Source: a virus. From it: DNA of 26,271 nt. Within the stretch, counting starts at the first letter, position 1. The number at the start of each line of letters is the position of its first letter. The notes below the pieces were generated by a model. It was not told where the DNA came from and made no database searches. It saw only the letters and a list, made by a program, of their open reading frames with translations. Shown one piece after another: positions 344-26,105 of this stretch. The DNA is taken from the UHGV virus genome UHGV-0343389; one strand, written 5' to 3'. The position numbers were made by a program, and so were the translations under genes.

Positions 344-3300
344 CTATTTCATCTGCTCTTCAACTTTATTTAGTAACGGTGATATCGCCCACAGGTTCTG
401 AAAAGGTAGCATTTTACGGACCGCGTGGGTTTGCTGGCTGTCAAATTCTCCGTTAAGTACACCATTCGCAACCGTCGCGGCATCACCGCCAAGATCAAAG
501 GTAGGACCAAGTAAAGCACCAATAGCATTACGACTCTGAAACCTTGATACCGGAGGCGCACCAAACATCGCGCCAAGACCAAACCTACCGCCGCTTATGT
601 TCTCAACGGTATTCAGCGGCTCAGAGAGCCAGCCAAGCATTCCGCCCCGGTCGATCCCCTCTTTCACAAGGTTATTCCAGCTGTAGTCGATATCGCGACC
701 GCTTAACTTCTGTTTCATCATATAGACCATTGAGCCAAGCGCAATCGTGCCAAGCGCACCAAGATAGAATGCAGCATCGCCCTGCTGGATACCAGATACT
801 AGCACCCTGTTATGCTGTGCGAAGATAAACGTTTTGAACTGCGTGATCATCTTCCAGCCTTCTTTACTAAAAAACAGCGGTGTATCACCTACGCCAGGCG
901 TTACAATCACTGAGTCTACATCTTTCAGCACTGCAGACTGGAAAATCTCTCTAGCGAAACGGTCATCCCACAGATGACTATGCCCGGTTAACAGCCCGTC
1001 CATATCCTCTCCGTGCTTCCCGAATTGCTCCCCGATTCGGCGCAGAACATCTTCATTGATGCCGACCTGTGCCATCTTCCGCATTTCACTTTTGGAGAGC
1101 GTGCCACCAGCAGAAACTTGGCGAGCCGCGTCAAGTATCCTCGACTGCACTATCATCCCGGACCATGATTTAAGTGCGCTGTTCCACTGATTCATCAGCG
1201 TCCAGTTACCGAATTTCTGCGTCATCCAGTTCAGACCTCGCTCAGCGGCGCTTCTCCGGCTATAGGGGTCAGTAAGATCCGCTATAGCCTTTGTACGCGT
1301 AGACAGGACATAATCAAGCCCAACGGCCATTTCTCGCAAATCCCTGGTTGCAATTTTCACTGAGTCCATATTTTTAAGCATGCTTACCATTGGTCCGAGA
1401 GATTTTCTCAGGCCATGCTGCATCATCGGTCGCATCAGATCAGTTGCAGCGGAGACAGTCATTCCACCAAGCAAACGGAGGAAGTTAATATTCCTAGCAA
1501 CTCGCCCGGCACGAACAAAGAAACTGCGTGGATCTTGAGGTGCACCGTAAGTACCAAGCAGTCGATCACGCATAGCCGTAATATCCCTAATATCAGCCTC
1601 CCGTTGCTTCTCAAGAACTGCACGTCGTTTAGGTGTTTTAGCCTCTTTTATTAGCCGGGTATATTCCTCACTAACCTGACGGATTTGCTCCCCCATATCT
1701 TTACGGCCAAACTGCGCAGTCAGCTCAATTTCTGGTGCCACCTGCCGGAGATAACTTTCCATGATGTAGTTAACATCTGATTCAAGAAAATCTTCTATAC
1801 GCTCATCAGGAATAAGCAGCGTTCTGCTTTTAGTGAAACCAGCCCGACCAACGAGTCTCTCTGGGATAATATCGGCTGGTACAAGCCCGGAAGGTGCGCC
1901 TATTATTTTATTCACGATCTCGTCAGCAGCGTCCTCTGCTTCCTCTCGGGATAGAGGCTCCATCTGCTTCAGTGCTCGTTCGCGGCTTGCATTCAGCCTT
2001 GTGGTTGAATTTGCCCGTTTTTGCAGTCGGCGAAGCTCAGAACGATATTTCCGTGGATTATCCAGCAACTCCATATGGCGCTGATAGACAGGAAGCTCAC
2101 TCTTTGCCTGCGCTATATCATCAAGGCGTGTTTTAAGGTCAGAGCTTTCTTTCATCATTCTTGCCTGAAGTTTTTCTGATGAAGTCTCGGCCAACTCTTT
2201 TTCTATTCTTGTAAGACGCGCCTGTGTGTCAGTCTCCTGAGATATAAGCTTATTTCGTTTATCCAGTTCTTCCATAAGTAGAATTTTTTTACCAGACCAT
2301 TTCTCCGCTTCAGCGATTTCACTAGCGAGAGCATCAGCGCGCGGTGCCGATTCCTCTGCAGTTTTTAGCAATGAATTTATCCTTTCAATTCGCTGACCTG
2401 CTTTGTCAGCACCTTTGGCACTAATCCCTTGTATCCAGTTGGCAATTCGCCCTCTGAATTCAGTGCGGTCGGAAAGTATCTTATCGAACTTATAAATGCG
2501 GGGAAGATAACTTTTCGCCGTCACGACATCGATATCCTCAGGAAGGATCCCCAGTTCCTGCATACGGGCTTTTGTGGTCTCGAAAATGGGGCGGATTCTG
2601 GCGGCTGCTTGTGAAACCTCAGGAATATCACTCTGATCACCACGGCGCATAGCCATGCCAACAGCTTCATTGAAATCAATAAAGCTCATCCTCTTCACGC
2701 CGCGGGCGCTAACAGATTTGCTGTACTGCTGGTAAGCATCACGAGTGGCTTCCATCTGCTTATAAAGCATGGCGTCGTATTGCTTAATCTTAGTCTCGAC
2801 TGCCGTAAACGTAGCCAACCCCTCATCATTTTTGGCGAAGAAATAGTTATTTTCGGCAAGCTGCTGGTTAATCTGACGGGAGACAAGAGATGGTGATTGA
2901 GCCAAGCGGCCAGCAGGAGTGACACTCAACGTTTTGTTAGCAAGTCCAAGTCCAGCGAGCTGTTCCTGATCGAGTGTGGTATTGAAAACCTGAGCTGCAC
3001 CAATGCTTTGAGGAGAATCCATACCTCGCAAATGATTACCTACTGAGTTAACCACTGCCTCGCGCGCGCTAGGTCCAGCAAGTAGCTGTGCACCAGCACC
3101 AAGGATCCCACCAACGAGAGCATCAACAACAACGTTCGATACGCTCTCCATCGGTGAGCGAGCTTCCTGAGTGGCCTGTAATGCGGCTTCTGATACTCCC
3201 CCACCAGCAGCATTCGCTAGGGCAAAACGCCCTGCCGTCTCAGCAATACTTCCTCCACGCGCTACCGCCCCTACAGGGATGAACATTGCAGCCACATTAA

Positions 3301-3733
3301 CCGGGTCTATCATTCCCATTGCTAAGCTTGAAATAGTACCAGCACCACCCATTTCAGATAGATATTCTCTATCTGTTCTTTGCTTATCGATTCGATGTTT
3401 AATTGCCATTGTTTCTTCATGCGAACCGGAGTTGATAAACGAATCTGCAAAATCTTCATAGCCTTTAATATCTGCTGCATCGTTATCAAATGGGTTATAT
3501 CCTTCAACCCTGTCAAACTGACTGAAAGGAGCACTGGCAATAAAGCTACCCAGCGTGTTATCTATACGAAATGCTGCTTGTCTAGACCTTTGAACGCGTT
3601 GATCACTGGTAAATGGGTTCACAGCAGAAAGCAAAGAAGGTGTTTCCATATAGAAATTACTGTCATCAGGTGCTGCTATTTGCTGAATATCCTCGCCAAG
3701 CAACTCTTTAGGATTCTGTTCATATATCGGCAT
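344..3733 (-). CDS. Large internal virion / DNA-ejection protein (T7 gp16-like by position and size)
   Basis: 1129-aa ORF, last gene of the co-directional virion operon, start overlapping the upstream stop. Long coiled-coil-like central region and hydrophobic C-terminal segment. Assignment is by synteny and size only. Confidence 0.55.
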   Translation of the reverse strand: MPIYEQNPKELLGEDIQQIAAPDDSNFYMETPSLLSAVNPFTSDQRVQRSRQAAFRIDNTLGSFIASAPFSQFDRVEGYNPFDNDAADIKGYEDFADSFINSGSHEETMAIKHRIDKQRTDREYLSEMGGAGTISSLAMGMIDPVNVAAMFIPVGAVARGGSIAETAGRFALANAAGGGVSEAALQATQEARSPMESVSNVVVDALVGGILGAGAQLLAGPSAREAVVNSVGNHLRGMDSPQSIGAAQVFNTTLDQEQLAGLGLANKTLSVTPAGRLAQSPSLVSRQINQQLAENNYFFAKNDEGLATFTAVETKIKQYDAMLYKQMEATRDAYQQYSKSVSARGVKRMSFIDFNEAVGMAMRRGDQSDIPEVSQAAARIRPIFETTKARMQELGILPEDIDVVTAKSYLPRIYKFDKILSDRTEFRGRIANWIQGISAKGADKAGQRIERINSLLKTAEESAPRADALASEIAEAEKWSGKKILLMEELDKRNKLISQETDTQARLTRIEKELAETSSEKLQARMMKESSDLKTRLDDIAQAKSELPVYQRHMELLDNPRKYRSELRRLQKRANSTTRLNASRERALKQMEPLSREEAEDAADEIVNKIIGAPSGLVPADIIPERLVGRAGFTKSRTLLIPDERIEDFLESDVNYIMESYLRQVAPEIELTAQFGRKDMGEQIRQVSEEYTRLIKEAKTPKRRAVLEKQREADIRDITAMRDRLLGTYGAPQDPRSFFVRAGRVARNINFLRLLGGMTVSAATDLMRPMMQHGLRKSLGPMVSMLKNMDSVKIATRDLREMAVGLDYVLSTRTKAIADLTDPYSRRSAAERGLNWMTQKFGNWTLMNQWNSALKSWSGMIVQSRILDAARQVSAGGTLSKSEMRKMAQVGINEDVLRRIGEQFGKHGEDMDGLLTGHSHLWDDRFAREIFQSAVLKDVDSVIVTPGVGDTPLFFSKEGWKMITQFKTFIFAQHNRVLVSGIQQGDAAFYLGALGTIALGSMVYMMKQKLSGRDIDYSWNNLVKEGIDRGGMLGWLSEPLNTVENISGGRFGLGAMFGAPPVSRFQSRNAIGALLGPTFDLGGDAATVANGVLNGEFDSQQTHAVRKMLPFQNLWAISPLLNKVEEQMK

Positions 3734-6480
3734 TATTTGCCCCCTGCGTATATATTGCTCGGAAGGTAATTGGCTGAACCATAACCGAATGGTTTGGTCA
3801 GATCTGGAGGAGTATATCCATCTTTATTGCTGAACTGCGGCAGCGGATTGCCTTCTCTCCGCACTCTAGCCTCATCAACACGCTGTTGCTGTAACTGAAT
3901 GGTTTGCCTGTACATTGGAGATGTCAGTTGATCCGGCTTGAAACGAACAGGGAGACCATTTTCTCCAATATAATTTCTCGGTTCTATCGCTCCGTTTGCG
4001 TCAGGCTGTAAAACCATAACAGCATAACTCCTATCCCTTGCCGTAAGGCCATCAGAAACAAGTATTAAGTCCGTATCACTGCGAGGACCGCCAAAGGATT
4101 TTGATTTAAGCTCGCGTTTTTCCTGCTCCCACTGCCCCTGTATCCAGTTACCAGCACCATTATTTACTCCGTACAATGCCTCAGGTGCATACTTCATAAC
4201 CTCTGCTTTGCCATTAACCGTAGAAACTCCCCAGGTGGTTCTGATCATGGCATTGGTCATTTTCTCAGCCTGTTCTGCATCGCCACCTGTCTGTACAAAG
4301 TTAGCATCGTAAATTGTCTGGTAATCTCGCTGATAGGCCGCATTTGATTTTCCTGGATCGGTAATATCCGGAGACCACGAACCAAAGGAAGTCAGACTGC
4401 TGGCGTTATTTTGTGCAGCAGTTGCCCTCGCCGCGACATATTTTTTGTCTCGCATGGCAGTGGAAAGCATCTGTTTCATTCGGTCATCCTGTTGGAACAC
4501 CTGGCTGTAAGCCATATCAACAGCCTTATCCTCCGGCACGCCAGCGCGGGAATAATCGTAAACCTTGCCGTAAAATGCCATCGTACTTTTATCAAGTGTT
4601 GCCGCTGCCGCCGGATTATTATCGAATAACTGACCGTAGAATTTTGCCATCGGGACAACCAGCGCAGGATCTCTTGATGTTGCTCCACTGTTAAGCATTG
4701 TTTTAACCTGAGTTGGTATCATGCCGCTTTTAGTTGTGACGGTGACCAGTGTATTGATGCTCTGCGGATCAGATATGGAAAACGAAGGCGCGATATCCTG
4801 CGCGAAATAACGGTCTACCGCTGCCTGATTGTTTTTGTCGTTCGGGTCCAGCGGGAAGTTATTTTGCATTGAAGACACGAACCTGTTTCTTCCCTGCTGA
4901 ATCTCCCACTCCCTATCCATCTCTTTAAATTTGGCCTGCATTTTCTCCCAGCGTTGCTGGTTAGCAGCAAATCCAGGAGCGTTTGGATCCTGTGGACGTA
5001 AACGTTCAAGAATGTCTTGTCGTCCTTCTGGAGTGAGGTCTTTAGCGGCACCAATGACACCTCCATATTGTATCTGCGCCTGCATATCCTTCCACTTCAT
5101 AGCGCCAATGCGCGGACCATTGGCCCGGATAAAATCGTCCTCAGAAGGTAACTTCTCAGGTTTCAATCCTTCATCAAGGGCTGAATATGCATCTTTAACT
5201 ACGGTGCTAAGCTGGTCCGCATACTGCTGGCGGTACTGATTTCTCAGCTCATTAGCCTGCCTCAATGCCTGTATTTGCATTTGAGGGCTCATAGCATCAA
5301 ATGCCGCATTGCCCGTATAACGCTTAGGTGAATCAAGGTTAGTTAGACCAAGGGCTGCCGAGATACCAGTTTCAAGCTGTTCGGTGCTATAAGGCATACT
5401 GCCATTTTCGTGTTTAATAATCCCAGCACATAAAGCAGCTAGTGTCTTTGGGTTAGAGATATCAAGCTGATCATTCTCCCCAACACCAAGCTCACCACAC
5501 AATGCCCTAATATAAGCATCAGTATTATTACCATCACTAGCCGGAGCATAGCGATTAACAATCTCGCTAACGGTGTCATAGCCTTGACGCTGGTAAGACA
5601 ACATATTTTTACCCAACGCGCGGATTCCATGCTCAGGGGTAGCAAACGTTGCAAAACGTCCATCGCTACCGATCTGACCTTCCCACGGGTTAGATTTGCT
5701 CGCTTCAATATTACCAGGGTTATTATTACGTAAACCACGAGCATCCAATGAATTACCATGTGATATTGCACGACTCACACCACCAAGATCCCCTGGCTCT
5801 CCATTAACCTGAAGAAACTCGTTGTATTTTTGAGCGATATTTCCTATCCATGCTTGCTGCCCCATTTGTTCCTTGAGCTGAGTTTTCTGCTGAACACGCC
5901 ACTCATCAGGAAGCCCATGCGCATCAGCGTATTGATCAATAGATTCAAATCGCTGCTTGGCTAAATCGACAAATGCTTGGTTATCGCTATATAGCCCCGC
6001 AGACTGAGTGACAGCCAATGCATTTCCTGACAAATACGTTTGATCTTGGAATTGCTGAAACTGCCCAACTTCATATCGACGTGCCTGATTGTAATAAGAC
6101 TGCATAGACTGCTGGAGTTGAAAGGATAATTTATTCCTTTCCTCACTTTCAGGGATTGAGCCTAATAATGCCTGAGCCCTTTCCTGCATATTTTTCATAA
6201 CAGCGTCACTCTGACCAAGAGCGTTTTTACCCTGTTTAGAAATCAGCCCATTTTCAGGGTTGTTAATCTGGTCATCTGCAAATTGGTTAAATTGCAGTAA
6301 CGCCTCCTGGGCCATAGCAACATTCGCTTTCTGCCTGGCTTCACCATATGCCACCGCATACTGATCTGCGACATTCGCCAGCACCTGACCTGCTTGAGGA
6401 ACATCGAAGGTCTGAAAACCACCGGTTTGCACACCACGACTTTGCACCTGGCGTCCGGATGTAGTAGGAACAACAGGCAT
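3733..6480 (-). CDS. Internal virion core protein (T7 gp15-like by position); central conserved block, possible cell-wall-active domain
   Basis: 915-aa ORF between the gp14-like and gp16-like genes, translationally coupled at both ends. Contains the block GLRNNNPGNIEASKSNPWEGQIGSDGRFATFATPEHGIRALGKNMLSYQRQGYDT. Function inferred from position. Confidence 0.5.
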   Translation of the reverse strand: MPVVPTTSGRQVQSRGVQTGGFQTFDVPQAGQVLANVADQYAVAYGEARQKANVAMAQEALLQFNQFADDQINNPENGLISKQGKNALGQSDAVMKNMQERAQALLGSIPESEERNKLSFQLQQSMQSYYNQARRYEVGQFQQFQDQTYLSGNALAVTQSAGLYSDNQAFVDLAKQRFESIDQYADAHGLPDEWRVQQKTQLKEQMGQQAWIGNIAQKYNEFLQVNGEPGDLGGVSRAISHGNSLDARGLRNNNPGNIEASKSNPWEGQIGSDGRFATFATPEHGIRALGKNMLSYQRQGYDTVSEIVNRYAPASDGNNTDAYIRALCGELGVGENDQLDISNPKTLAALCAGIIKHENGSMPYSTEQLETGISAALGLTNLDSPKRYTGNAAFDAMSPQMQIQALRQANELRNQYRQQYADQLSTVVKDAYSALDEGLKPEKLPSEDDFIRANGPRIGAMKWKDMQAQIQYGGVIGAAKDLTPEGRQDILERLRPQDPNAPGFAANQQRWEKMQAKFKEMDREWEIQQGRNRFVSSMQNNFPLDPNDKNNQAAVDRYFAQDIAPSFSISDPQSINTLVTVTTKSGMIPTQVKTMLNSGATSRDPALVVPMAKFYGQLFDNNPAAAATLDKSTMAFYGKVYDYSRAGVPEDKAVDMAYSQVFQQDDRMKQMLSTAMRDKKYVAARATAAQNNASSLTSFGSWSPDITDPGKSNAAYQRDYQTIYDANFVQTGGDAEQAEKMTNAMIRTTWGVSTVNGKAEVMKYAPEALYGVNNGAGNWIQGQWEQEKRELKSKSFGGPRSDTDLILVSDGLTARDRSYAVMVLQPDANGAIEPRNYIGENGLPVRFKPDQLTSPMYRQTIQLQQQRVDEARVRREGNPLPQFSNKDGYTPPDLTKPFGYGSANYLPSNIYAGGK

Positions 6481-11806: not shown

Positions 11807-12799
11807 TTACACCACGCGGGCTTCTGTTTCCAGAAGCGCATCAGTTTCACGGATTGGTACACCACGGAATGAAGTCCACCACTCGCCTTCAGTCTCCTTT
11901 ACGCTGATAGCCAGAGATGTTTTCTCCAGAGACTGCAGATCAAGAGCCTGGCCTACAGTGCGGTTCATGTAGAACACCGGGCGGCCCATGCCACGGTTTG
12001 GAATGCGATGCAGTGCTTTAACCATCAACTTCGCAATATTTGCGGCATAGGAAGGTTCTGAAAGATTGCTGACATCGATGTTTGCAATGCGAACAACATA
12101 ACGCCAGTCACGCAGAGCAAGTCCGTTATCCCATTTGTAATGGGTGCGATAGCCTTCGTACTTGCCGCCATTAGCATCTTCCAGTGTCACCTGGCCTTTA
12201 TCTTCCATCTGGATGCCAGCCTTCTGCCCTTTCGGGAAGATGCCATGCACGGTGTTTTCGCCCCACACCACTAACCAGATTGAGGTGTTATCTGTACCCG
12301 TGCCACCAGCATCAATGATGTTCTGAGCATTACCCGCAGACAGGCTGGAATAGCGGGAGGACAGTCCCATAAACTGCTGAGGGTTAACGCTGGAATCACC
12401 ATAAAACAGCGTCTGCGCCATCTGCTGATTCATCGCTTCAATAAATGCGCGGTCTTCAGACAGGCGGAATTCGGCGGTATTACCGTTCAGATCAGCCAGT
12501 GACTTATCGACTTCAGCATAGGTTTCCAGCATGCCAACGGAGTCGGTGACCTGCACTGTGGTTGATTTGCTTGGCTGTACGCCATAGTTCAGCAAACGCC
12601 AGGTAGCTGAAGGTAAACCAGAACGAATGGTGGTTCGGTGTCCGGTAGGAAGGTTCCCTTCGACAAAAGGCATATCCTGAAGGATCGGGTTAGTTTGACC
12701 GAGAAGCTCGATAATCTTATCGACTTTCCCGTTTGGATCGACGCGCTTACCCCAGTCAGCCAGCGTTAGCGCAGTTAAGCCTTTAACAGCCATTGTCAT
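11807..12799 (-). CDS. Major capsid protein
   Basis: 330-aa ORF directly after the acidic scaffold-like gene and before a stem-loop, the typical position of a major head gene. Not visibly similar to T7 gp10 from memory. Confidence 0.6.
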   Translation of the reverse strand: MTMAVKGLTALTLADWGKRVDPNGKVDKIIELLGQTNPILQDMPFVEGNLPTGHRTTIRSGLPSATWRLLNYGVQPSKSTTVQVTDSVGMLETYAEVDKSLADLNGNTAEFRLSEDRAFIEAMNQQMAQTLFYGDSSVNPQQFMGLSSRYSSLSAGNAQNIIDAGGTGTDNTSIWLVVWGENTVHGIFPKGQKAGIQMEDKGQVTLEDANGGKYEGYRTHYKWDNGLALRDWRYVVRIANIDVSNLSEPSYAANIAKLMVKALHRIPNRGMGRPVFYMNRTVGQALDLQSLEKTSLAISVKETEGEWWTSFRGVPIRETDALLETEARVV

Positions 12800-13521: not shown

Positions 13522-13814
13522 TCCTGTTCACTGGCCTCTTTGGCCATCTTCAAATACTGTTCAGGGCAATGCGCCATAACGCGCTGAAACAGCTCCAGCG
13601 CCAGATTGCGTTGCCCCTCATAAAATGCCATTGCCATAGCGTCCATCGGAGAGATAGCGGAAAACACCCGGCCTTTCTCCAGCACAGACCAGACAACGCG
13701 ACGCCCCTGTTCACTGCTCATGACAAAGCGAATGTCATCAATTTCACGCTGCGCCATGTCACGTTGCTTACGGGCGTTTTCTTCTTTCAGTTGATCGTCT
13801 TCGTAATCTGTCAT
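13518..13814 (-). CDS. Hypothetical small head-module protein
   Basis: 98-aa ORF translationally coupled to both the portal stop and the scaffold start. Confidence 0.45.
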   Translation of the reverse strand: MTDYEDDQLKEENARKQRDMAQREIDDIRFVMSSEQGRRVVWSVLEKGRVFSAISPMDAMAMAFYEGQRNLALELFQRVMAHCPEQYLKMAKEASEQE

Positions 13815-15490
13815 TGTGATTGCCCACCCTGACCACTAACTGCATTCGCCATAGCTGACAAAACACTCGGATCCGAAGTTTTAGCTTCGCTTAGCGTCTT
13901 GGCACCCTGTGCCGCCGCCATCCCCATCTCCATCATTTGTTGCTGCTGTTGTTGCTGTGCCCGTTGCTGGCGAGCCTGCTCAACCTGTTCCTGCGGAACA
14001 ATGACGGTTGGAGACACTCCGGACATATCAGCGAATGCATCGATCGCCTGATCAACGTTGAGTTTGTCGAGAGCTTCTGGTTTCGCTTGCGCAAGTTGAC
14101 CAATGAAGTTGACCGTAGACGCCAGACTGGACAGGCCGATAGACTTCTGCGCCTGAGCCATGACGGAAATGTATTCGACCTTCAGGGGCATACCTTCCAT
14201 CGCGTCAGGCGGTGGCGGCAGCATGTTTTTACGCACCATCATCGAGAAAGCGCGGTCAATGAGAGGATTAAGACATTCGTCGTTCAGACGCTCCAGAACC
14301 GGCCCCAACATCAGAAGTTTTTCTTCTTTCATTTCGATCACCGCTTCAACAGGCATCGAGCGGGTATTGATGTTCTGCAACATCATGAACAGATCGACAA
14401 AGTAGGCGCTGTTAATGATTTGACGAGTGTCCTGAATGTCTGCCACCAAATCTGCTGTACTGGGGTTAACCAGATAAGCAGGCCTGAAACCATCATGACC
14501 AGTAATCTGATCGATATACGTGATGTCGCCAGGAAGAAGGGAGGCGCGCTGATTCTTGAGGGAAGTCGGAGCAACCATCGGCGGATTGGTGGCTTTATCA
14601 ATCAACTGCGACTTGCGCTTCTGGAGAAGCTGCAATGCCTTAACAGGTCCAAGCGCCAGCATACCCGGGCATGATGATCCATAAACATCTTCGCCGTTAA
14701 CTTCCCAGCGCGGAGCCATAATTGGAAACTCATCGAATCCGGACTCACGCAACAACTTGTCGTTATCGCCACCAACCTCGTAATAAACCGATTTGAATGG
14801 CTTGTTCTTGCTATCCAGCTTCGATGTATCGCGGTCAATGTTCGGGTAAACCGAATGCATCACTTCAATCCACTTCTCGTAGGTGCCGCTTTCCCACATG
14901 CTTTTTACGGATTCGCTGACGTTATTTAGCCCGAACTCCTGAACAAGCTGACGAACAGTCATAGAGAACTTGCGAAAACAGGTGTCCACACTGCCACGAG
15001 GTGAGTTAGCCAGGTAGTAACTTCCTATCGGGAATGGCATTGTGCGAATGATGTCCTCGTCATCCTCCAGCACTGCCATTGCACCAGTGCTGTATGTGCC
15101 GAGGCTTCCGTATAACTGCGGCAGCGACTGATAGAGATTCGACTTATTGAACATATCGTTCATGCGGTTCTGCACCGCCTCAAGCCACAACTTAACAGGG
15201 CCATAATCCATCATTTCAGGATCTGGCGTAGCCAGGCGAAACCACGGACGCGCGGGGCTTGTGATGCCTGACATCATGCCGCTGGCGAGAGTGCGCGCCG
15301 CCATAGTCCCGGTCGAATCAATAATGCGTGTATTGCGTCGATCGTTACGGTTGACCTCAGAAGTCAGAAAGCGGGAACCACGCGGGTTGATGTAATCACT
15401 CAACTCGCGCCAGTGCGGCTCGAACGACTGACGCTCGCTTTCAAGTTGTGCGAACTGTTTGTTCAATCGCTCTTTAGTTGTTTCCGCCAT
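13811..15490 (-). CDS. Portal (head-to-tail connector) protein, T7 gp8-like
   Basis: 559 aa. C-terminal Gln-rich tail (QQRAQQQQQQQMMEMGMAAAQG) resembles the gp8 C-terminus as recalled from memory. First large gene of the morphogenesis operon. Confidence 0.7.
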   Translation of the reverse strand: MAETTKERLNKQFAQLESERQSFEPHWRELSDYINPRGSRFLTSEVNRNDRRNTRIIDSTGTMAARTLASGMMSGITSPARPWFRLATPDPEMMDYGPVKLWLEAVQNRMNDMFNKSNLYQSLPQLYGSLGTYSTGAMAVLEDDEDIIRTMPFPIGSYYLANSPRGSVDTCFRKFSMTVRQLVQEFGLNNVSESVKSMWESGTYEKWIEVMHSVYPNIDRDTSKLDSKNKPFKSVYYEVGGDNDKLLRESGFDEFPIMAPRWEVNGEDVYGSSCPGMLALGPVKALQLLQKRKSQLIDKATNPPMVAPTSLKNQRASLLPGDITYIDQITGHDGFRPAYLVNPSTADLVADIQDTRQIINSAYFVDLFMMLQNINTRSMPVEAVIEMKEEKLLMLGPVLERLNDECLNPLIDRAFSMMVRKNMLPPPPDAMEGMPLKVEYISVMAQAQKSIGLSSLASTVNFIGQLAQAKPEALDKLNVDQAIDAFADMSGVSPTVIVPQEQVEQARQQRAQQQQQQQMMEMGMAAAQGAKTLSEAKTSDPSVLSAMANAVSGQGGQSQ

Positions 15491-15504
15491 TTCAATGACT
15501 CCGG

Positions 15505-15711
15505 TTACTGACCAAGCAGCGTTTTACCGCTGGTATTAGCGGTTGATGTGTCGCCCTGAGAACCGGTAAGCAGCGTAGAACTACGACCAGCAGCAGCGCG
15601 ACGGCGACGAGTTTCTTCGTCGCGGGCATCAACAACGGCGGCATCCTGCTCCTGTGGTGCTGCCTGAACTTCTGGTGTTGCAGGCACTGATGGTGAGCTA
15701 CCCATGCACAT
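15505..15711 (-). CDS. Small hypothetical protein preceding portal
   Basis: 68-aa ORF with GGAG upstream. Low-complexity Ala/Arg/Thr-rich. Coding status uncertain. Confidence 0.3.
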   Translation of the reverse strand: MCMGSSPSVPATPEVQAAPQEQDAAVVDARDEETRRRRAAAGRSSTLLTGSQGDTSTANTSGKTLLGQ

Positions 15712-15739
15712 ATCAATGACTCCGTACGCAATTAAATTA

Positions 15740-15754
15740 TTACCAATTTAACCA
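15740..15754. promoter_or_regulatory. Half-site of the TTACC-N5-GGTAA operator (TTACCAATTTAACCA)
   Basis: Left half perfect, right half degenerate. Centre is exactly 62 bp from the perfect site at 15802-15816. Confidence 0.35.
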
Positions 15755-15801
15755 CATATGATTTATTTATCGTAGACAGTTGACATTTAACGCACGAATT
15801 A

Positions 15802-15816
15802 TTACCTTTCAGGTAA
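15802..15816. promoter_or_regulatory. Operator-like palindrome TTACCTTTCAGGTAA upstream of the portal operon
   Basis: Perfect 5+5 inverted repeat with 5-bp spacer, in the intergenic region between the portal operon and the tRNA island. Overlaps a TTGACA-containing candidate promoter. Confidence 0.6.
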
Positions 15817-16138
15817 CCAAAGAGTTCATTCCGGTTACTAACCTGACTGGCTTGTCGTTAAATTGAACAGGTGGAGTGAGCTTTTATTTTGAGCAGTACG
15901 GCGTATGGCACATGCGCCGATAGCGGTCTGGATACGTTTAAGGGGCACCCTCCCTTGCTCGGGCAAACGAACCAGGTAGCCGGAATGTGCAAGTCGAGCG
16001 GTTTTATTCCGCGCACGGGGATTCACCATCCAGGCGATTCGGTGTGACACCTCGGAAGAGACGAGGGTACAACGATGAGAGCATTTATGGAGCCGCGACA
16101 AAGTGTGGCGCCTTAACAGGCTAAGTGCTCTCAGCGTT

Positions 16139-16215
16139 GTGGCATTAGCTCAGCTGGACAGAGCAACCGCCTTCTAAGCGGTTGGTCGCAGGTTCGAATC
16201 CTGCATGCCACGCCA
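16139..16215 (+). tRNA. tRNA-Arg (anticodon UCU), phage-encoded
   Basis: Cloverleaf folded by hand: acceptor GTGGCAT/ATGCCAC, D-stem GCTC/GAGC, anticodon stem ACCGC/GCGGT with loop CTTCTAA, T-stem GCAGG/CCTGC with loop TTCGAAT, discriminator G and encoded CCA. 77 nt. Confidence 0.9.
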
Positions 16216-16259
16216 GAATCACGCCTAAGGACCGTGATGCCAGAAGTTCCAGGGGGCTT

Positions 16260-16301
16260 GGCGGTGATGGTTTCCCTTGAAGGACTATCACCGCCCTTTT
16301 T
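16260..16301 (+). terminator. Rho-independent terminator downstream of the tRNA
   Basis: GGCGGTGAT ... ATCACCGCC stem followed by TTTTT. Confidence 0.6.
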
Positions 16302-16379
16302 ACAGCAGGACGCCATTGCGATGACTTCATGCTGTAAACCAGTACAGCCACGGAAGGCATAACTCATTGCTTCCAGTTC

Positions 16380-16404
16380 GCCCGGTTCGCCGGGCATTTT
16401 TTTT
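16380..16404 (+). terminator. Rho-independent terminator (UUCG tetraloop)
   Basis: GCCCGG-TTCG-CCGGGC followed by ATTTTTTTT. Confidence 0.7.
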
Positions 16405-16429
16405 AGGTGAGATTATCAAGACAATTGAT

Positions 16430-16837
16430 ATGTTGGCTAAGTATCTAAATGAATGGCCATTAAAATATTCTCGTATCGTTCAGGCTGAAGACTGCATTTT
16501 TTATGGCGTTTTTGCTGGTAATGAAATGCATTACGAAGTAATTCAGAGTGAGGGGCTGACCGGGTTAACTCTTAGAGAAGACCATGGTACTAGCGTTACG
16601 TTCCATGACTGGATAACAGCACAACGTTCTGAAATGGAAAAAGGCGATGTGTTTGATATTTCTCGCTCTGTTTGCGCTAAAGCAAAAAGTGATAATGATT
16701 ACATGAGCGAACACTTATACAACATGAAGCTACAGTGCCTTGCCGAGGTGCTTGGTAAAAAAGCTATTGTCGATAAACAAGGCGCCATTAGCGAAGCAAA
16801 GGCAATAAATGCTGCATTTGATGAAATTATTTTCTAG
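16430..16837 (+). CDS. AT-rich cargo (moron) gene, hypothetical 135-aa soluble protein
   Basis: ORF on the opposite strand to all flanking phage genes. Markedly lower GC than neighbours. Bracketed by intrinsic terminators. No signal peptide or TM segment apparent. The ATG at 16430 is preferred because the upstream TTG extension runs through a terminator hairpin. Confidence 0.6.
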   Translation: MLAKYLNEWPLKYSRIVQAEDCIFYGVFAGNEMHYEVIQSEGLTGLTLREDHGTSVTFHDWITAQRSEMEKGDVFDISRSVCAKAKSDNDYMSEHLYNMKLQCLAEVLGKKAIVDKQGAISEAKAINAAFDEIIF

Positions 16838-16840
16838 CTC

Positions 16841-16854
16841 TGTGACATGTCACA
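16841..16854. repeat. Perfect 14-bp palindrome TGTGACATGTCACA
   Basis: Read directly from the sequence, 4 nt after the cargo-gene stop. Its 12-bp core recurs at 19293-19304. Confidence 0.5.
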
Positions 16855-16857
16855 AAC

Positions 16858-16886
16858 AGCCAGCCGATGAGCTGGCTTTGTTTTAT
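16858..16886 (+). terminator. Rho-independent terminator after the cargo gene
   Basis: AGCCAGC-cgatga-GCTGGCT followed by TTGTTTTAT. Lies between the convergent cargo gene and terL. Confidence 0.6.
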
Positions 16887-16927
16887 CCTCATCAGAGGAT
16901 ATCAACGACATTATCCCCACCAGCGGA

Positions 16928-18403
16928 TTAATCATAGGGATCGTAATCTGTGATGGCCTTGCCTTGCTGGTTCTGCTGCCCGGGAATTCGCAGACGCTTC
17001 GACACAGGGAAAGCAAACGTCAGCAGTAGCGCATCGCCTTTACCCGGCGAGCGCCCAAGCCGCTCCTTGATATCTTCCTTCGGTTCGATAACGATTTTAC
17101 CGTCCACTCGAACTTTGTACTCTGCCGCCGACAGGTCGTCCGCTGTTTCCTGGTCATCCAGCATGCCGCCCAGCCTCAGCCATGTCTTGCATGAGTTGAA
17201 CATCTCCCCGCGCTTATTGAGCATCTGCGGGTCAGTAGACGCGCCACCGAACGGAACAAGTTGCCATGTACGACCCCAGCCGTCACCGATTGACTTCAGA
17301 CCAGTTCCGTAACCGAAGTCGATGAACACTGCGTCAGCCTGGTACTGGTCTTCAAAGTCAGCGATACGCTTCGCCATAATCAGATCGTCAGTAGTCTTGT
17401 TGCCAGTCCACAGCACCTTACTGTGCAGCCCCTGCCGCAGGTATATCACCGCGTCATCAACGCCTGAGTATGCCGGGTCAACGCCGATTATCACCGGAGC
17501 ATGTGCAACCTGCGCAGCGGTTACCACCCGTTTCATTGCCTCATCAGTAAGACCGGTAGGGATAAACTGCAATTCAGATGCATCAGGGAATATGCCGCGC
17601 ACACGGATTTTAACGAAGTCGCTGTCTTCCCCGTAGTCATCAACCCATTTCTGCAACTGCTGTTTGTTAGTGCCTTCCACCGTCCGGCTGTCAATCTGCG
17701 CACACTTCCAGCGGTGTTTGTACTTGCGGAAACATTCACGGAAACGCCCGGTGTTACGCGTCGGGTTCCCGAACGCCACCCAGATGATTTCGGTGTCTTC
17801 GTCCGTCAGCGCACCCTCTGCTACCTCCCACACAAGATCGGCAATATTCGACGCTTCATCGAATACCACGATGATGCGTTTGCGCTCGTTGTGTAGTCCG
17901 GCGAATGCCTCAGTGTTGTGCTCAGACCAGGGGATTGCGTCAGCTCGCCACCGCTTGTCGTGCCCAGGGTCATTGCTGTACATCGCGGTAGCGGTACAGG
18001 TAAACCAGTCTTTCGTGATAGCAAGGTTTGACCACTTGATAATTTCCGGCCAGGTCTTCGTTCGTAGCTGGTTGTCGGTGTTGGCGGTCACCACGACCTT
18101 ACAATCCTCGCAAGTGGACATGCCCCAGTTGATCAGCATTGAGATAAATGCGGATTTACCAATACCGTGACCAGAAGCGCGTGCCAGCATAAGCGGCTGA
18201 TAGCGCGTCTCTGGATTCTGCAGGTGATCACGTATCTCTCGGAACGCATCAGCCTGCCATTGACGTGGGCCGGTAGCATGTGCCAGTTCAGTCCCCTCTT
18301 CCCCCCACGGGAACGCATAGAGAGCATAGCCAAGCGGATCGTGAGTGAACCCTGCAATATCCTCGATCAACTGCTCTTCAGGAGATAACGCTGTATCTGT
18401 CAC
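16928..18403 (-). CDS. Terminase large subunit
   Basis: 491 aa. Walker A-like GHGIGKS near the N-terminus. Acidic nuclease-like segment (VIIGVDPAYSG) in the C-terminal half. GTG start overlaps the terS stop (GTGA). Confidence 0.85.
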   Translation of the reverse strand: MTDTALSPEEQLIEDIAGFTHDPLGYALYAFPWGEEGTELAHATGPRQWQADAFREIRDHLQNPETRYQPLMLARASGHGIGKSAFISMLINWGMSTCEDCKVVVTANTDNQLRTKTWPEIIKWSNLAITKDWFTCTATAMYSNDPGHDKRWRADAIPWSEHNTEAFAGLHNERKRIIVVFDEASNIADLVWEVAEGALTDEDTEIIWVAFGNPTRNTGRFRECFRKYKHRWKCAQIDSRTVEGTNKQQLQKWVDDYGEDSDFVKIRVRGIFPDASELQFIPTGLTDEAMKRVVTAAQVAHAPVIIGVDPAYSGVDDAVIYLRQGLHSKVLWTGNKTTDDLIMAKRIADFEDQYQADAVFIDFGYGTGLKSIGDGWGRTWQLVPFGGASTDPQMLNKRGEMFNSCKTWLRLGGMLDDQETADDLSAAEYKVRVDGKIVIEPKEDIKERLGRSPGKGDALLLTFAFPVSKRLRIPGQQNQQGKAITDYDPYD

Positions 18404-18996
18404 TGATTACCATCCTGACGTTCTTTGAGTCGCTTCCTGGCTGCTGCTATGCGATCAGCAATTGTCACATTCACATTAACATCCAGGCGTTCTTTGAATG
18501 CGTTGACGTCGACGTGCTTACCAATCAGTTCGAGGTTCTTCACCTTGTCAGGCCATTTAATTTTTTTGAGGATTGTCTCTATCGAATCCTCGTTCATGTT
18601 CATGATGGTCGATGACAGATCAAAGCCGCTAAGCGTAGTGCGCCAGATTTTCGGCCACTCGCGGATTGGCTTAAGGCTCCCATCGTCGTTGAGGATGTCG
18701 ATCACGTCCATCTGGTCGATCTCCACCAGGCGCATGAGAACGTAATCAGCACTGACGCGCATTCGTTTGTTGCGCTCTTCCATCAGCTCGGCAATCCGTT
18801 TTTGAATGCGTTCATCGCGCATCATGACACTGGCTTTAACTGCCGCTGTATTTGGGGAGAATCCTGCGTTAATCGCTGCCTGAGTCTGGTTTTCAGGCGT
18901 TTTGATGTATGACTGGCAATAAGCCTCCTGCATTGCTGTTAGTGGCTTAAATTGCGTTGATTTGCGTTTATAGGTTTTAGGTTCAGCAGGCATCAT
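18400..18996 (-). CDS. Terminase small subunit
   Basis: Immediately upstream of terL and translationally coupled. Start trimmed to ATGATG at 18996 (SD GGTGG). The longer track ORF to 19074 reads through operator repeats and a terminator. Confidence 0.65.
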   Translation of the reverse strand: MMPAEPKTYKRKSTQFKPLTAMQEAYCQSYIKTPENQTQAAINAGFSPNTAAVKASVMMRDERIQKRIAELMEERNKRMRVSADYVLMRLVEIDQMDVIDILNDDGSLKPIREWPKIWRTTLSGFDLSSTIMNMNEDSIETILKKIKWPDKVKNLELIGKHVDVNAFKERLDVNVNVTIADRIAAARKRLKERQDGNQ

Positions 18997-19010
18997 AACC
19001 ACCGTGGTAA
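18996..19010. promoter_or_regulatory. Operator-like site TAACCACCGTGGTAA (one mismatch), overlapping the terS start
   Basis: Inverted repeat 18 bp (centre to centre) from the perfect site at 19014-19028. Confidence 0.45.
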
Positions 19011-19013
19011 TAG

Positions 19014-19028
19014 TTACCGTTGTGGTAA
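19014..19028. promoter_or_regulatory. Operator-like palindrome TTACCGTTGTGGTAA upstream of terS
   Basis: Perfect match to TTACC-N5-GGTAA, between an intrinsic terminator and the terS start codon. Confidence 0.6.
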
Positions 19029-19039
19029 TAGTACCATGC

Positions 19040-19065
19040 AAAATAAAGCCGCCATAGTTGGCGGC
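19040..19065 (-). terminator. Rho-independent terminator immediately upstream of the terminase operon
   Basis: On the minus strand: GCCGCC-AACTAT-GGCGGC followed by TTTATTTTG. Confidence 0.6.
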
Positions 19066-19070
19066 AGTAT

Positions 19071-19283
19071 TCAAAGTCCATCAAATTCATCGTAAAAACT
19101 CTCGTCAAGATACCCTTCCCATTTACCGCGAATGAAAATTACATCCTCGCCGCAAGGGTGCTGACTGTCGATAACTATATCCCTCCTGGCGCAACCATAC
19201 TTATGCATGAGAAATTTAACCTCTTTCGGAAAATTTGCTGAGTTATCTCTCATATCTTCAAGGTCGTAGCGTATTTTTGGCAT
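19071..19283 (-). CDS. Hypothetical 70-aa protein
   Basis: ORF with SD GAAGGTG. ATG at 19283 is preferred over the GTG at 19304 that lies inside the palindrome. Confidence 0.4.
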   Translation of the reverse strand: MPKIRYDLEDMRDNSANFPKEVKFLMHKYGCARRDIVIDSQHPCGEDVIFIRGKWEGYLDESFYDEFDGL

Positions 19284-22947: not shown

Positions 22948-22962
22948 TTACCTCTGAGGTAA
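22948..22962. promoter_or_regulatory. Operator-like palindrome TTACCTCTGAGGTAA
   Basis: Perfect site just upstream of the 22944 start codon. Centre 62 bp from the site at 23010-23024. Confidence 0.6.
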
Positions 22963-23009
22963 TTAAAAACCACATAAGACACGAAATCAATAGATTTTAG
23001 AATATTTTA

Positions 23010-23024
23010 TTACCTAGAAGGTAA
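23010..23024. promoter_or_regulatory. Operator-like palindrome TTACCTAGAAGGTAA
   Basis: Perfect site. Together with 22948-22962 it flanks a candidate minus-strand promoter. Confidence 0.6.
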
Positions 23025-25001: not shown

Positions 25002-25232
25002 TCATGAGTAGAAGAAGTATGCCAGTTCTGCTTTTGAGCGCAGCCATTGTCTTGTTTTACAGGCTTTAAAAAGCCCATTCATCAATACTTTACCTGGCAT
25101 TTTGCGCTTACCTGTTAAGTGAGTCTGGATATAGTGACTCGTCGTTCCGGCTTCCTGTGCGAAGGCTTCACGCTCATCCGGAGTAAGTGCAAGCCAGTGC
25201 TTTTTGAAATCGAAATGTCCGTTATCGCTCAT
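25002..25232 (-). CDS. Cro-like HTH regulator
   Basis: 76 aa with HTH-like segment (REAFAQEAGTTSHYIQTHLTGKRKM). Divergent from the repressor gene across an operator-rich region and followed by the replication genes. Confidence 0.55.
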   Translation of the reverse strand: MSDNGHFDFKKHWLALTPDEREAFAQEAGTTSHYIQTHLTGKRKMPGKVLMNGLFKACKTRQWLRSKAELAYFFYS

Positions 25233-25268: not shown

Positions 25269-25283
25269 TCACCCATAAGGTAA
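25269..25283. promoter_or_regulatory. Operator-like site TCACCCATAAGGTAA (OR region)
   Basis: One of three sites in the 154-bp divergent intergenic region. Left half has one mismatch. Confidence 0.45.
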
Positions 25284-25299
25284 CAAAAATCAAGGATAG

Positions 25300-25314
25300 T
25301 TACCTATGAGGTGC
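25300..25314. promoter_or_regulatory. Operator-like site TTACCTATGAGGTGC (OR region)
   Basis: Right half imperfect. Centre 17 bp from the next site and 31 bp from the previous one. Confidence 0.45.
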
Positions 25315-25316
25315 AT

Positions 25317-25331
25317 TTACCTGTTGGGTAA
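25317..25331. promoter_or_regulatory. Operator-like palindrome TTACCTGTTGGGTAA (OR region)
   Basis: Perfect site in the cro/cI intergenic region. Confidence 0.6.
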
Positions 25332-25386: not shown

Positions 25387-25971
25387 ATGAAAAGTATCCA
25401 GGACGTCCGCAGGCAAAATCTCAACGACTTGATCGACCGTGAATTCAATGGTGTTCAGACGCGGATGGCAGAAAAACTTGGAACTCAGGCAAATCTGGTA
25501 AACCGCTGGGCTCTTGGCAAGAAGGTTATCGGCGACCAGGTTGCGCGAAAAATTGAAGCTGCCGCCAATAAACCCCGTAACTGGCTTGATATCGATCGCT
25601 CGCTTTCTCAGGAAGGTTTTCAGCCTGTCGGCCCAAGCGACATTGGTCAGCTGGCGGCTCACAACCTGGAACGCTGGATGAGCGAAAGCCGCGACCTTTC
25701 AACACAGGGAAAACTTCACCGCGCATCCGGCGTCGCCCAGGTGACAATCAGCCGCCTGTTAAACAATGAGGTTAGCGTTTCCATTTCCACCCTGGAGAAT
25801 GTGGCATCCGCATTCGGGCGTCACGGCTATGAATTACTGATTCACCCGCACGACCCTGCGACCATCAACTATGACCGCTCGCGCTACGCATTGTTACCCG
25901 AAACCGAGAAAGCAAAGATCGAAAGTTACATTGAATTTGTCATCAACCAGAACGAAAAAAGCAAACAATAA
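25387..25971 (+). CDS. CI-like immunity repressor with two HTH (XRE-type) domains and no recognisable S24 peptidase domain
   Basis: 194 aa. HTH 1 near residues 20-45 (QTRMAEKLGTQANLVNRWALGKK). HTH 2 near residues 110-140 (LHRASGVAQVTISRLLNNEVSVS). No Ser/Lys autocleavage module evident. Divergent from the Cro-like gene. Confidence 0.6.
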   Translation: MKSIQDVRRQNLNDLIDREFNGVQTRMAEKLGTQANLVNRWALGKKVIGDQVARKIEAAANKPRNWLDIDRSLSQEGFQPVGPSDIGQLAAHNLERWMSESRDLSTQGKLHRASGVAQVTISRLLNNEVSVSISTLENVASAFGRHGYELLIHPHDPATINYDRSRYALLPETEKAKIESYIEFVINQNEKSKQ

Positions 25972-26028: not shown

Positions 26029-26043
26029 TTACCTTACGGGTAA
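26029..26043. promoter_or_regulatory. Operator-like palindrome TTACCTTACGGGTAA (OL-like, upstream of -35)
   Basis: Perfect site. Centre 62 bp from the site at 26091-26105. Confidence 0.6.
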
Positions 26044-26062
26044 TTTTTTTAACTCATATCTA

Positions 26063-26091
26063 TTGACACCAAACCAAATAAGCATAATTAT
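26063..26091 (+). promoter_or_regulatory. Sigma-70-like promoter (TTGACA, 16-17 bp spacer, TAATTA/AATTAT), pL-like
   Basis: Consensus -35 hexamer at 26063-26068 and an AT-rich -10 at about 26085-26091. Flanked by two operator-like sites. Drives the plus-strand gene starting at 26125. Confidence 0.55.
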
Positions 26092-26105
26092 TACCTCAAC
26101 GGTAA
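26091..26105. promoter_or_regulatory. Operator-like palindrome TTACCTCAACGGTAA overlapping the -10/start region
   Basis: Perfect site immediately downstream of or overlapping the -10 element. Confidence 0.6.

Follow-up and report, generated by a model that had tools for sequence, protein, structure and literature searches.

The DNA analysed here, called the window below, is the whole 26,271-nt stretch of the virus genome UHGV-0343389, in which every large open reading frame (ORF) between 344 and about 25200 is on the minus strand. Between a 68-residue gene and terL, a gap at 15712-16927 carries a plus-strand tRNA-Arg(UCU), three terminator hairpins and an AT-rich ORF, which we refer to as the cargo gene. 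A preliminary description of this DNA had listed the tRNA, the terminators and the AT-rich ORF, and ARAGORN, Rfam, a hairpin scan and the base composition bore this parts list out. It had also spoken of a long leader, which we find to extend for about 320 nt from the promoter and operator at 15781-15816 to the tRNA, but it missed that this leader is a conserved structured RNA. That RNA, the core, and the operon around it are the subject of this analysis. Over 15400-17300 the window shares 98% identity with Escherichia phage HEMP4; phiV10, TL-2011b, further Uetakevirus (epsilon15-like) phages and prophages of many E. coli genomes match there too, and by this similarity we identify the window as a phiV10-type prophage. 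The parts of the unit are as follows.

15781-15816, plus strand: predicted early promoter with an overlapping operator, from a -35/-10 match and a palindrome; the start site is probably near 15816.
15820-15885, plus strand: putative hairpin A, read from the sequences of relatives, in which AAGAGUUCA (15820-15828) would pair with UGAGCUUUU (15877-15885).
15899-16066, plus strand: core structured RNA, about 170 nt with five helices including a pseudoknot, defined by covariation and nhmmer.
16070-16138, plus strand: hairpin B (M2), in which CAACGAUGAGAGCAU (16070-16084) pairs with GUGCUCUCAGCGUUG (16125-16139).
16139-16215, plus strand: tRNA-Arg with the anticodon UCU (tct), called by ARAGORN and by Rfam (RF00005, 71.7 bits against a gathering threshold of 29).
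16260-16295, plus strand: terminator T1, with 14 pairs and the tail CTTTTT.
16380-16395, with a T-run to 16404, plus strand: terminator T2, with 6 G-C pairs and the tail ATTTTTTTT.
16406-16837, plus strand: cargo gene of PHROG 4846, 143 aa from the GTG at 16406 or 135 aa from the ATG at 16430.
16858-16887 (hairpin at 16858-16877), plus strand: terminator T3, with 7 pairs and the tail TTGTTTT, between the convergent cargo gene and terL.

The core is almost certainly a genuine structured RNA family. Its nhmmer profile recovers the window copy with E=2.8e-39, and it is built from the following elements.

15899-15906 / 15912-15919, plus strand: helix P1, a hairpin with the loop GGCAC.
15927-15931 / 15972-15976, plus strand: helix P2, which closes a variable domain.
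15975-15993, plus strand: near-invariant 19-mer GGUAGCCGGAAUGUGCAAG.
About 15996-16014, plus strand: variable hairpin.
16018-16021 / 16029-16032, plus strand: helix P4, whose loop bases CACC make the pseudoknot.
16024-16027 / 16041-16044, plus strand: pseudoknot between CACC and GGUG.
16050-16054 / 16062-16066, plus strand: helix P6, with the loop GAAGAGA.

Covariation was measured over 26 pairs in 56 sequences below 94% identity, with shuffled sequences and slid partners as controls. Standard pairs form in 96.9% of the cells, compared with 88.5% in shuffles, and 14 of the 26 pairs are changed on both sides where shuffles give 7.1, a value of 14 being reached by none of 500 shuffles. Sliding the 3' partners by 1-3 columns lowers the pairing to 30-53%. 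A scan of 149 sequences returned exchanges of G-C and A-U in P1 (94/53), of C-G and U-A in P2 (80/67), of C-G and G-C in both P4 (99/45) and P6 (103/40), and of C-G and A-U in the pseudoknot (126/23). A de novo all-against-all covariation scan was noisy from G-U combinations and was used only for picking strong pairs. The abundance of G-U pairs establishes that the plus strand is the one transcribed. The minimum free energy fold of 15810-16140 has a z-score of -3.4, and about 60 bases of the core are near-invariant, most of them unpaired. RNAalifold proposed a long-range helix GCACAU/AUGUGC instead of P1; covariation backs P1, and this helix was kept only as a possible tertiary or switch contact.

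No reading frame is conserved in the core among the homologues on either strand. The minus-strand open frame stands at 0, 1 or 2 relative to the invariant 19-mer or is missing, depending on the homologue, and the lengths of the core cover every class modulo 3; the region therefore does not code for protein. Minus-strand ORFs do lie over these elements, namely PhiV10p04 (L001:3246-3497) over the tRNA, mEp460 gp37 (L004:2443-2811) over the core and, in the window, 15838-16101 and 16131-16397. The coding-sequence annotations of PhiV10p04 and mEp460 gp37 are probably spurious, their frame not being conserved among homologues. The RNA family is new, having neither an Rfam match nor an annotation. 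Over 15880-16138, Rfam 15 gave no match at the gathering threshold and, at E<=10, only chance-level minus-strand matches at the 5' edge (E 3.6-4.8); in seven related loci it returned tRNAs and unrelated matches and none to the core. No description of the core RNA was found in the literature on the phiV10/epsilon15 tRNA, the P1 ban operon, the mEp phages or N-less lambdoids.

A distant DNA search with 15800-16140 retrieved Uetakeviruses, the lambdoids mEp460, cdtI, 2H10, Ayreon, Stx2c phages, Stx2a_1447 and 1720a-02, and also P1 and P7. Three pattern scans of IMG/VR with different conserved anchors yielded more than 220 loci, of which about 150-160 are distinct sequences, and a scan of one genome per species placed the core RNA in at least 12 Enterobacterales genera. 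When a 301-nt query comprising core and hairpin B from the mEp460 leader was used, 1638 of 5426 complete E. coli genomes (about 30%) gave matches, and the rows that span the leader itself carry 'none' as the annotation under the match. Carriers include pathogen lineages, Stx2c and Stx2a phages and P1-type plasmid prophages. The exact invariant 19-mer was also seen in two contigs (L234 and L246) labelled as Oscillospiraceae and Bacillota metagenome-assembled genomes, which are probably mis-binned enterobacterial phage DNA. One lambdoid contig (L028) holds two cores on the same strand, at 3991-4157 and 4798-4962, about 800 nt apart, the second being more divergent. In phage LLS (L250 31730-32359, minus strand) the GUUGUGG...CCACAAC stem is kept and a different stretch of about 120 nt, with a terminator-like hairpin, lies at the core's place.

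In lambdoid phages the core is on the same strand as cI and in most loci begins 110-165 nt past it. The cI genes are of several immunity types, all with a helix-turn-helix (HTH) and an S24 peptidase, and cro and cII-like genes diverge on the other side. In mEp460 the cI terminator is followed by two TTGC-N7-GCAA palindromes and then by a TTGCAT-17-TATCTT promoter, with the core about 40 nt further on; the palindrome also occurs in the cI-cro spacer, with 3 sites (putative OR and OL) against 0.29 expected. This position, about 40 nt after the presumed PL, is that of nutL in lambda and of putL in HK022. The next ORFs stand 450-1000 nt downstream of the core start in most lambdoid loci, and no match to an N-like family was found among the lambdoid downstream ORFs tested. 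The mEp phage collection was isolated as Nus-dependent (PMC11893012); the paper does not name mEp460, which shares the collection's name. On the PR side of mEp460 (L004:206-394) a C4 antisense RNA (83.6 bits) and an isrK RNA (67 bits) lie beside an antirepressor gene, an RNA immunity module of P1/N15 type in the same phage as the core. In P1 and P7 the core lies upstream of ban, in the C1-controlled ban operon, and in P1-type loci a tRNA-Ile2 ends 11 nt before it. Judged from the window, the mEp460-type lambdoids and the P1 ban operon, the core appears always to follow a repressor-controlled early promoter.

The window's own promoter has a perfect -35 TTGACA (15781-15786), a 17-nt spacer and the -10 TACCTT (15804-15809); the promoter scan tool itself called TAGACA-18-AATTAT at 15773-15802. 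The palindrome TTACCTTTCAGGTAA (15802-15816) spans the -10 and the likely start site near 15816. Its form, TTACC-N5-GGTAA, has nine copies in the window against 0.41 expected, and none of 100 shuffles reaches nine. One pair of operator-type sites (25269/25317) lies between a divergent gene for a 194-aa HTH repressor (25387-25971, plus strand) and a cro-like gene (25002-25232, minus strand), another (26029/26091) brackets a second TTGACA promoter (26063, plus strand) immediately past the repressor gene, and a further pair (22948/23010) surrounds a minus-strand promoter at about 22990. The promoters at about 22990 and 26063 are built like that of the unit, with the -10 fused to the operator. The eight sites beyond that of the unit fall at 18996-19028, 22948-23024, 25269-25331 and 26029-26105 and are mostly paired; the pair 18996/19014 falls within the 5' end of the terS reading frame. 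Among the Uetakevirus relatives whose promoter falls within the 170 nt inspected ahead of the leader, most retain a TTGAC(A/C)...AATTATTACC-N5-GGTAA arrangement. No operators are mapped in a study of a close relative's repressor (PMC9782041). The -10 sits inside a palindrome that is repeated nine times, also to either side of the repressor gene, which makes it most likely that the unit is an early operon under repressor control. Its promoter would then belong to the regulon of the prophage repressor, off in the lysogen and on early after induction.

Of the two hairpins that flank the core, hairpin A is assigned with low confidence; relatives carry CAACAUGAAAGCGCAC...GUGCGCUUCCAGGUGUG at its position. 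Hairpin B is closed by at least 8 pairs in 73 of 75 unique variants, compared with 19 of 75 when shuffled, and its arms covary, as in GAUGAGAGCAU/GUGCUCUCAGC versus AGGUAAGAGCA/UGCUCUUUCC. Its 3' arm ends in GUUG and abuts position +1 of the tRNA, and a similar hairpin precedes the core in Uetakeviruses. Since the base of hairpin B adjoins the first base of the tRNA, an RNase P cut is expected between 16138 and 16139. Phages that have no tRNA here show an acceptor-like stem, GUGGUGA...UCACCAC-AAC, at the tRNA spot, bounding about 140 nt (mEp460 L004:2743-2890; also L009 and L011), and apical inserts of hairpin B contain T-arm-like hairpins (CUGGUUCAAUUCCAG, GUCCGUUCGAUUCGGAC). Neither ARAGORN nor Rfam made a call on these acceptor-stem and T-arm-like segments in mEp460, L009 and L011; they may be tRNA-like elements or decayed tRNAs.

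The tRNA-Arg of the window has the discriminator G followed by an encoded CCA. Among the arginine codons of the 31 window ORFs, AGA makes up 12.1% (7.5 per 1000 codons) and AGG 9.3% (5.7 per 1000). In E. coli, AGA stands at about 2 and AGG at about 1.2 per 1000 codons, so that the use in the window is roughly three to four times that typical of E. coli. The codons are concentrated in two giant proteins (1129 and 915 aa; 344-6480), which hold 42 of them, and in early genes. Capsid, portal and terminase have almost none of them: portal holds one, and the 330-aa ORF at 11807-12799, which probably encodes the major capsid protein, is free of them. The count makes the suggested supply of AGA/AGG decoding by this tRNA plausible. 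Such supply is not essential, as many relatives have no tRNA: one follows the core in 39 of 62 dereplicated Uetakevirus loci and in 3 of 82 lambdoid loci, which makes it an optional module, and 106 of 156 dereplicated loci, including 78 of the 82 lambdoid ones, have a core with no adjacent tRNA.

Downstream, T1 and T2 are separated by an intervening hairpin, and the hairpin of T3 is annotated in phiV10 on the other strand as the terL terminator, while our tool called it on the plus strand only. The raw count of four terminators against 2.3 +/- 1.6 expected is not significant alone. Terminators were also compared across loci with a relaxed finder for a hairpin plus T-tract, with shuffled and antisense controls; a strict version under-called the large-loop terminators of lambdoids. 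In 61 of 62 dereplicated Uetakevirus loci and in 62 of 82 lambdoid loci, the 700 nt behind the core hold at least one same-strand terminator (two or more in 51 of the 62 Uetakevirus loci), where shuffled sequences gave 16 and 19. The cargo gene starts 2-26 nt past the end of the T2 T-run, and in about 48 of 61 Uetakevirus loci the first cargo start codon comes no more than 33 nt after the start of the T-tract. With no room for a promoter behind the terminators, cargo expression would require read-through from the leader promoter. The sequence TGAGATTAT (16407-16415), just ahead of the cargo ATG at 16430, resembles a weak extended -10.

The cargo ORF matches PHROG 4846, of unknown function, at 5e-84. 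No Pfam or PADLOC match was obtained for it; the Phage_gp49_66 match of the phiV10-type cargo is the sole function that Pfam or PADLOC assigned among the cargo families, where coiled-coil matches were non-specific. Given its fixed slot behind two terminators, a repressor-controlled promoter and a leader RNA, the cargo is probably an early lytic gene rather than one expressed in the lysogen.

The same plus-strand unit lies between the small gene or portal and terL in phiV10, TL-2011b, SPN1S, Tyrion, PAT1 and Klebsiella phages (including ST512-KPC3phi13.3), and at the same place in 122 complete E. coli genomes; about 94 loci collected from IMG/VR and GenBank have the terL-portal arrangement. Similarity to phiV10 runs from portal through the leader, the tRNA and both terminators, stops just past the T-run of T2 and resumes at terL, and the stretch from T1 to T2 (16260-16404) is backbone common to Klebsiella and Salmonella phages. 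Behind the terminators, at least 31 ORF families occupy the slot among 74 loci with both flanks; the commonest is Sf6 gp66/N4 gp49 (29 of 74), and the PHROG 4846 ORF of the window is found in 10 of 74. In the island of Tyrion, the cargo region (L007:3208-3272) holds an Rfam int-alpA RNA motif (44 bits against a gathering threshold of 35.8). The flanks of the unit have a G+C content of 0.52-0.58, the leader and tRNA 0.55-0.58 and the cargo ORF 0.38-0.43. The flanking genes are as follows.

13811-15490, minus strand: portal (PF12236).
15505-15711, minus strand: 68-aa gene between portal and the gap.
16928-18403, minus strand: terL, named from the annotation of relatives, with no Pfam match.
18400-19074, minus strand: terS (PF03592).

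We conclude that the unit is very probably a conserved early accessory operon of epsilon15/phiV10-type (Uetakevirus) phages. Its constant parts are the promoter, the leader and the terminators, since the tRNA is optional and the ORF is swapped, and only the cargo ORF behaves like a moron. This does not agree with the view in the preliminary description that a recent island had been inserted at an unusual place in the late operon. The AT-rich ORF and the strand, opposite to that of the neighbours, would suit a recently acquired foreign insertion. However, the comparison of syntenic loci finds the backbone genus-wide with phage-like G+C and only the ORF exchanged, which refutes insertion for the backbone and leaves it extremely improbable overall. 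The role given to the operator at 15802, as the site of a promoter for portal and the virion genes downstream, is likewise unsupported: it overlaps the -10 of the plus-strand promoter of the unit itself. A scan found no minus-strand promoter near 15712-15830, the only minus-strand promoter-like sites being at 16412-16439 and 16826-16855, and no minus-strand terminator in 15300-17200. Late transcription coming from terL may run antisense across the island.

Our best explanation of the operon is tentative, with a likelihood slightly below even. In a lysogen, the phage repressor would occupy the TTACC-N5-GGTAA operator over the -10. On infection or induction, sigma-70 RNA polymerase would start near 15816 and transcribe hairpin A, the core RNA, hairpin B and the tRNA-Arg(UCU). 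RNase P, cutting at 16138/16139, would free the tRNA and leave a leader RNA of about 320 nt, and the freed tRNA would help to decode the AGA/AGG codons of the phage. Two strong terminators and then the promoterless, exchangeable cargo come next, so that the cargo would be expressed by read-through only. The nascent core RNA may act in cis on the polymerase that is transcribing it and so allow passage of the downstream terminators. A cis effect on polymerase is favoured because an early promoter, the core, terminators, promoterless genes and the apparent lack of an antiterminator protein together reproduce the logic of HK022 put. By this analogy, it is quite possible, if somewhat short of probable, that the core is a cis-acting antitermination RNA with a put-like function and no relation to put itself. 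Several observations weigh against such a role. Phage LLS has no core, yet it keeps the same early-left operon, the hairpin-B module and the terminators, so the core is not indispensable in that lineage. In P1 the core stands directly before ban with no terminator between them. The P1-type tRNA 11 nt upstream and, in the window, hairpin B at the 5' end of the tRNA resemble processing signals, by which a stable RNA would be released. Each of put and nut exists as a left and a right copy, but no second core was found on the PR side. The terminators behind the core could just as well mark where a stand-alone RNA gene ends, and the TGAGATTAT extended -10 could give the cargo some expression independent of the leader.

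Some of these points would suit a non-coding RNA that stands alone, is processed and stable, and has a conserved host protein or RNA as its target in trans; the leader would then be an array of small RNA genes split by processing hairpins, with the terminators ending the RNA operon. The core is modular: three unrelated genome contexts contain it, a tRNA may accompany it or not, and L028 has it as a tandem pair. It is flanked by covarying long hairpins and adjoined by tRNA processing sites. The T-arm-like hairpins in the hairpin B inserts and the acceptor-like stem of tRNA-less variants point the same way, LLS manages without the core, and the many near-invariant, mostly unpaired bases suggest recognition by a conserved partner. 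We rate such a trans-acting RNA only a little below cis antitermination, as a strong competitor to it, with two points against it: lambdoid PL must still express early-left genes behind terminators, and the Uetakevirus cargo has no promoter room, so that some read-through would be needed anyway. A riboswitch-like sensor, in which a ligand or cell signal switches the fold towards terminator read-through or, in P1, towards ban translation, is improbable. The compact, aptamer-like pseudoknot with its many invariant unpaired bases, its place in a 5' leader before variable platforms (terminators, hairpin B, a ribosome-binding region) and a possible alternative pairing of GCACAU (15908-15913, P1 loop and 3' strand) with AUGUGC (15985-15990) would be in keeping with it. 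However, there is no obvious mutually exclusive pairing of core and terminator, the terminators being 190-310 nt away past the tRNA, and P6 is a self-contained hairpin; the alternative pairing uses invariant bases, beyond covariation testing, and 2 of 5 natural variants break it. Still slightly less probable is that the leader merely serves the processing or stability of the tRNA precursor in an ordinary tRNA and moron unit. This would explain the frequent tRNA after the Uetakevirus core and the abutment of hairpin B on the tRNA 5' end, but not the many loci, most of the lambdoid ones among them, where no tRNA adjoins the core, nor a conservation and complexity far beyond the needs of a tRNA leader. 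Taking cis-acting antitermination and trans action together, we see an appreciable chance, though less than an even one, that the core is a new class of RNA that reprograms host transcription, either as an RNA-only antiterminator unrelated to put or as a processed RNA acting in trans on a conserved enterobacterial target, and that it serves as a mobile module at the head of early operons in three unrelated phage lineages.

The core offers a concrete, conserved candidate for how N-less lambdoids pass their early terminators, and its defined helices and pseudoknot lend themselves to disruption and compensatory repair. Although abundant among complete E. coli genomes, it is unannotated and absent from Rfam. 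The terL-portal gap is a fixed early expression slot, with promoter, operator, leader RNA and terminators, for varied accessory genes, and the epsilon15/phiV10 slot is thus a useful place to seek new anti-defence or host-takeover genes.

Several known systems resemble parts of this unit. The C4/CI antisense RNAs of P1, P7 and P4 (RF01695), which are tRNA-like and cut by RNase P, are, like the core, phage regulatory RNAs of repressor-controlled operons with tRNA-like processing features nearby. However, their size and fold differ from those of the core, and there is no C4 match at the core. Phage tRNA and moron units share with the island a tRNA-Arg(UCU) that fits the AGA/AGG bias and an AT-rich cargo, present in some relatives only and followed by a terminator, whereas here the cargo has no clear promoter of its own and sits in a fixed slot behind two terminators, a repressor-controlled promoter and a leader RNA. 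The boxA-boxB-boxC leaders of lambda nut and of rrn operons have the same early-leader position. The pyrimidine-rich 3' arms of hairpins A and B, each followed by GUUGUGG, recall boxA and boxC, but these boxA-like strands are base-paired. The boxA consensus (GCUCUUUAACAA) has no match with three or fewer mismatches in 15712-16927, a canonical boxA occurs in 4 of 156 loci, and no N-like protein was found among the ORFs tested. In L090-type relatives (L090, L034 and L047), a small hairpin immediately behind the core and then an exact or near rrn boxA (TGCTCTTTAACAA), 183-198 nt after the core start, replace hairpin B.

The closest likeness is to put of HK022 (putL/putR), a processive antiterminator RNA that suppresses termination in cis through the beta' zinc-binding domain of RNA polymerase. 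Like the core, put lies just past a repressor-controlled early promoter, in lambdoids without an N-type protein and with terminators downstream, and is a structured nascent RNA. A put RNA-mediated mechanism was also suggested for the N-less phage LLS in a 2025 study (PMC12315714). Homology was rejected: putL, located with a published primer, shares neither sequence nor architecture with the core, and nhmmer --max with the core profile gave only a 16-nt chance match (E=0.49) in the HK022 PL/PR region. Each put is about 70 nt with two stem-loops and forms part of a left/right pair (PMC9378689), whereas the core runs to about 170 nt, has five helices, a pseudoknot among them, and is present once per phage and on the PL side only.

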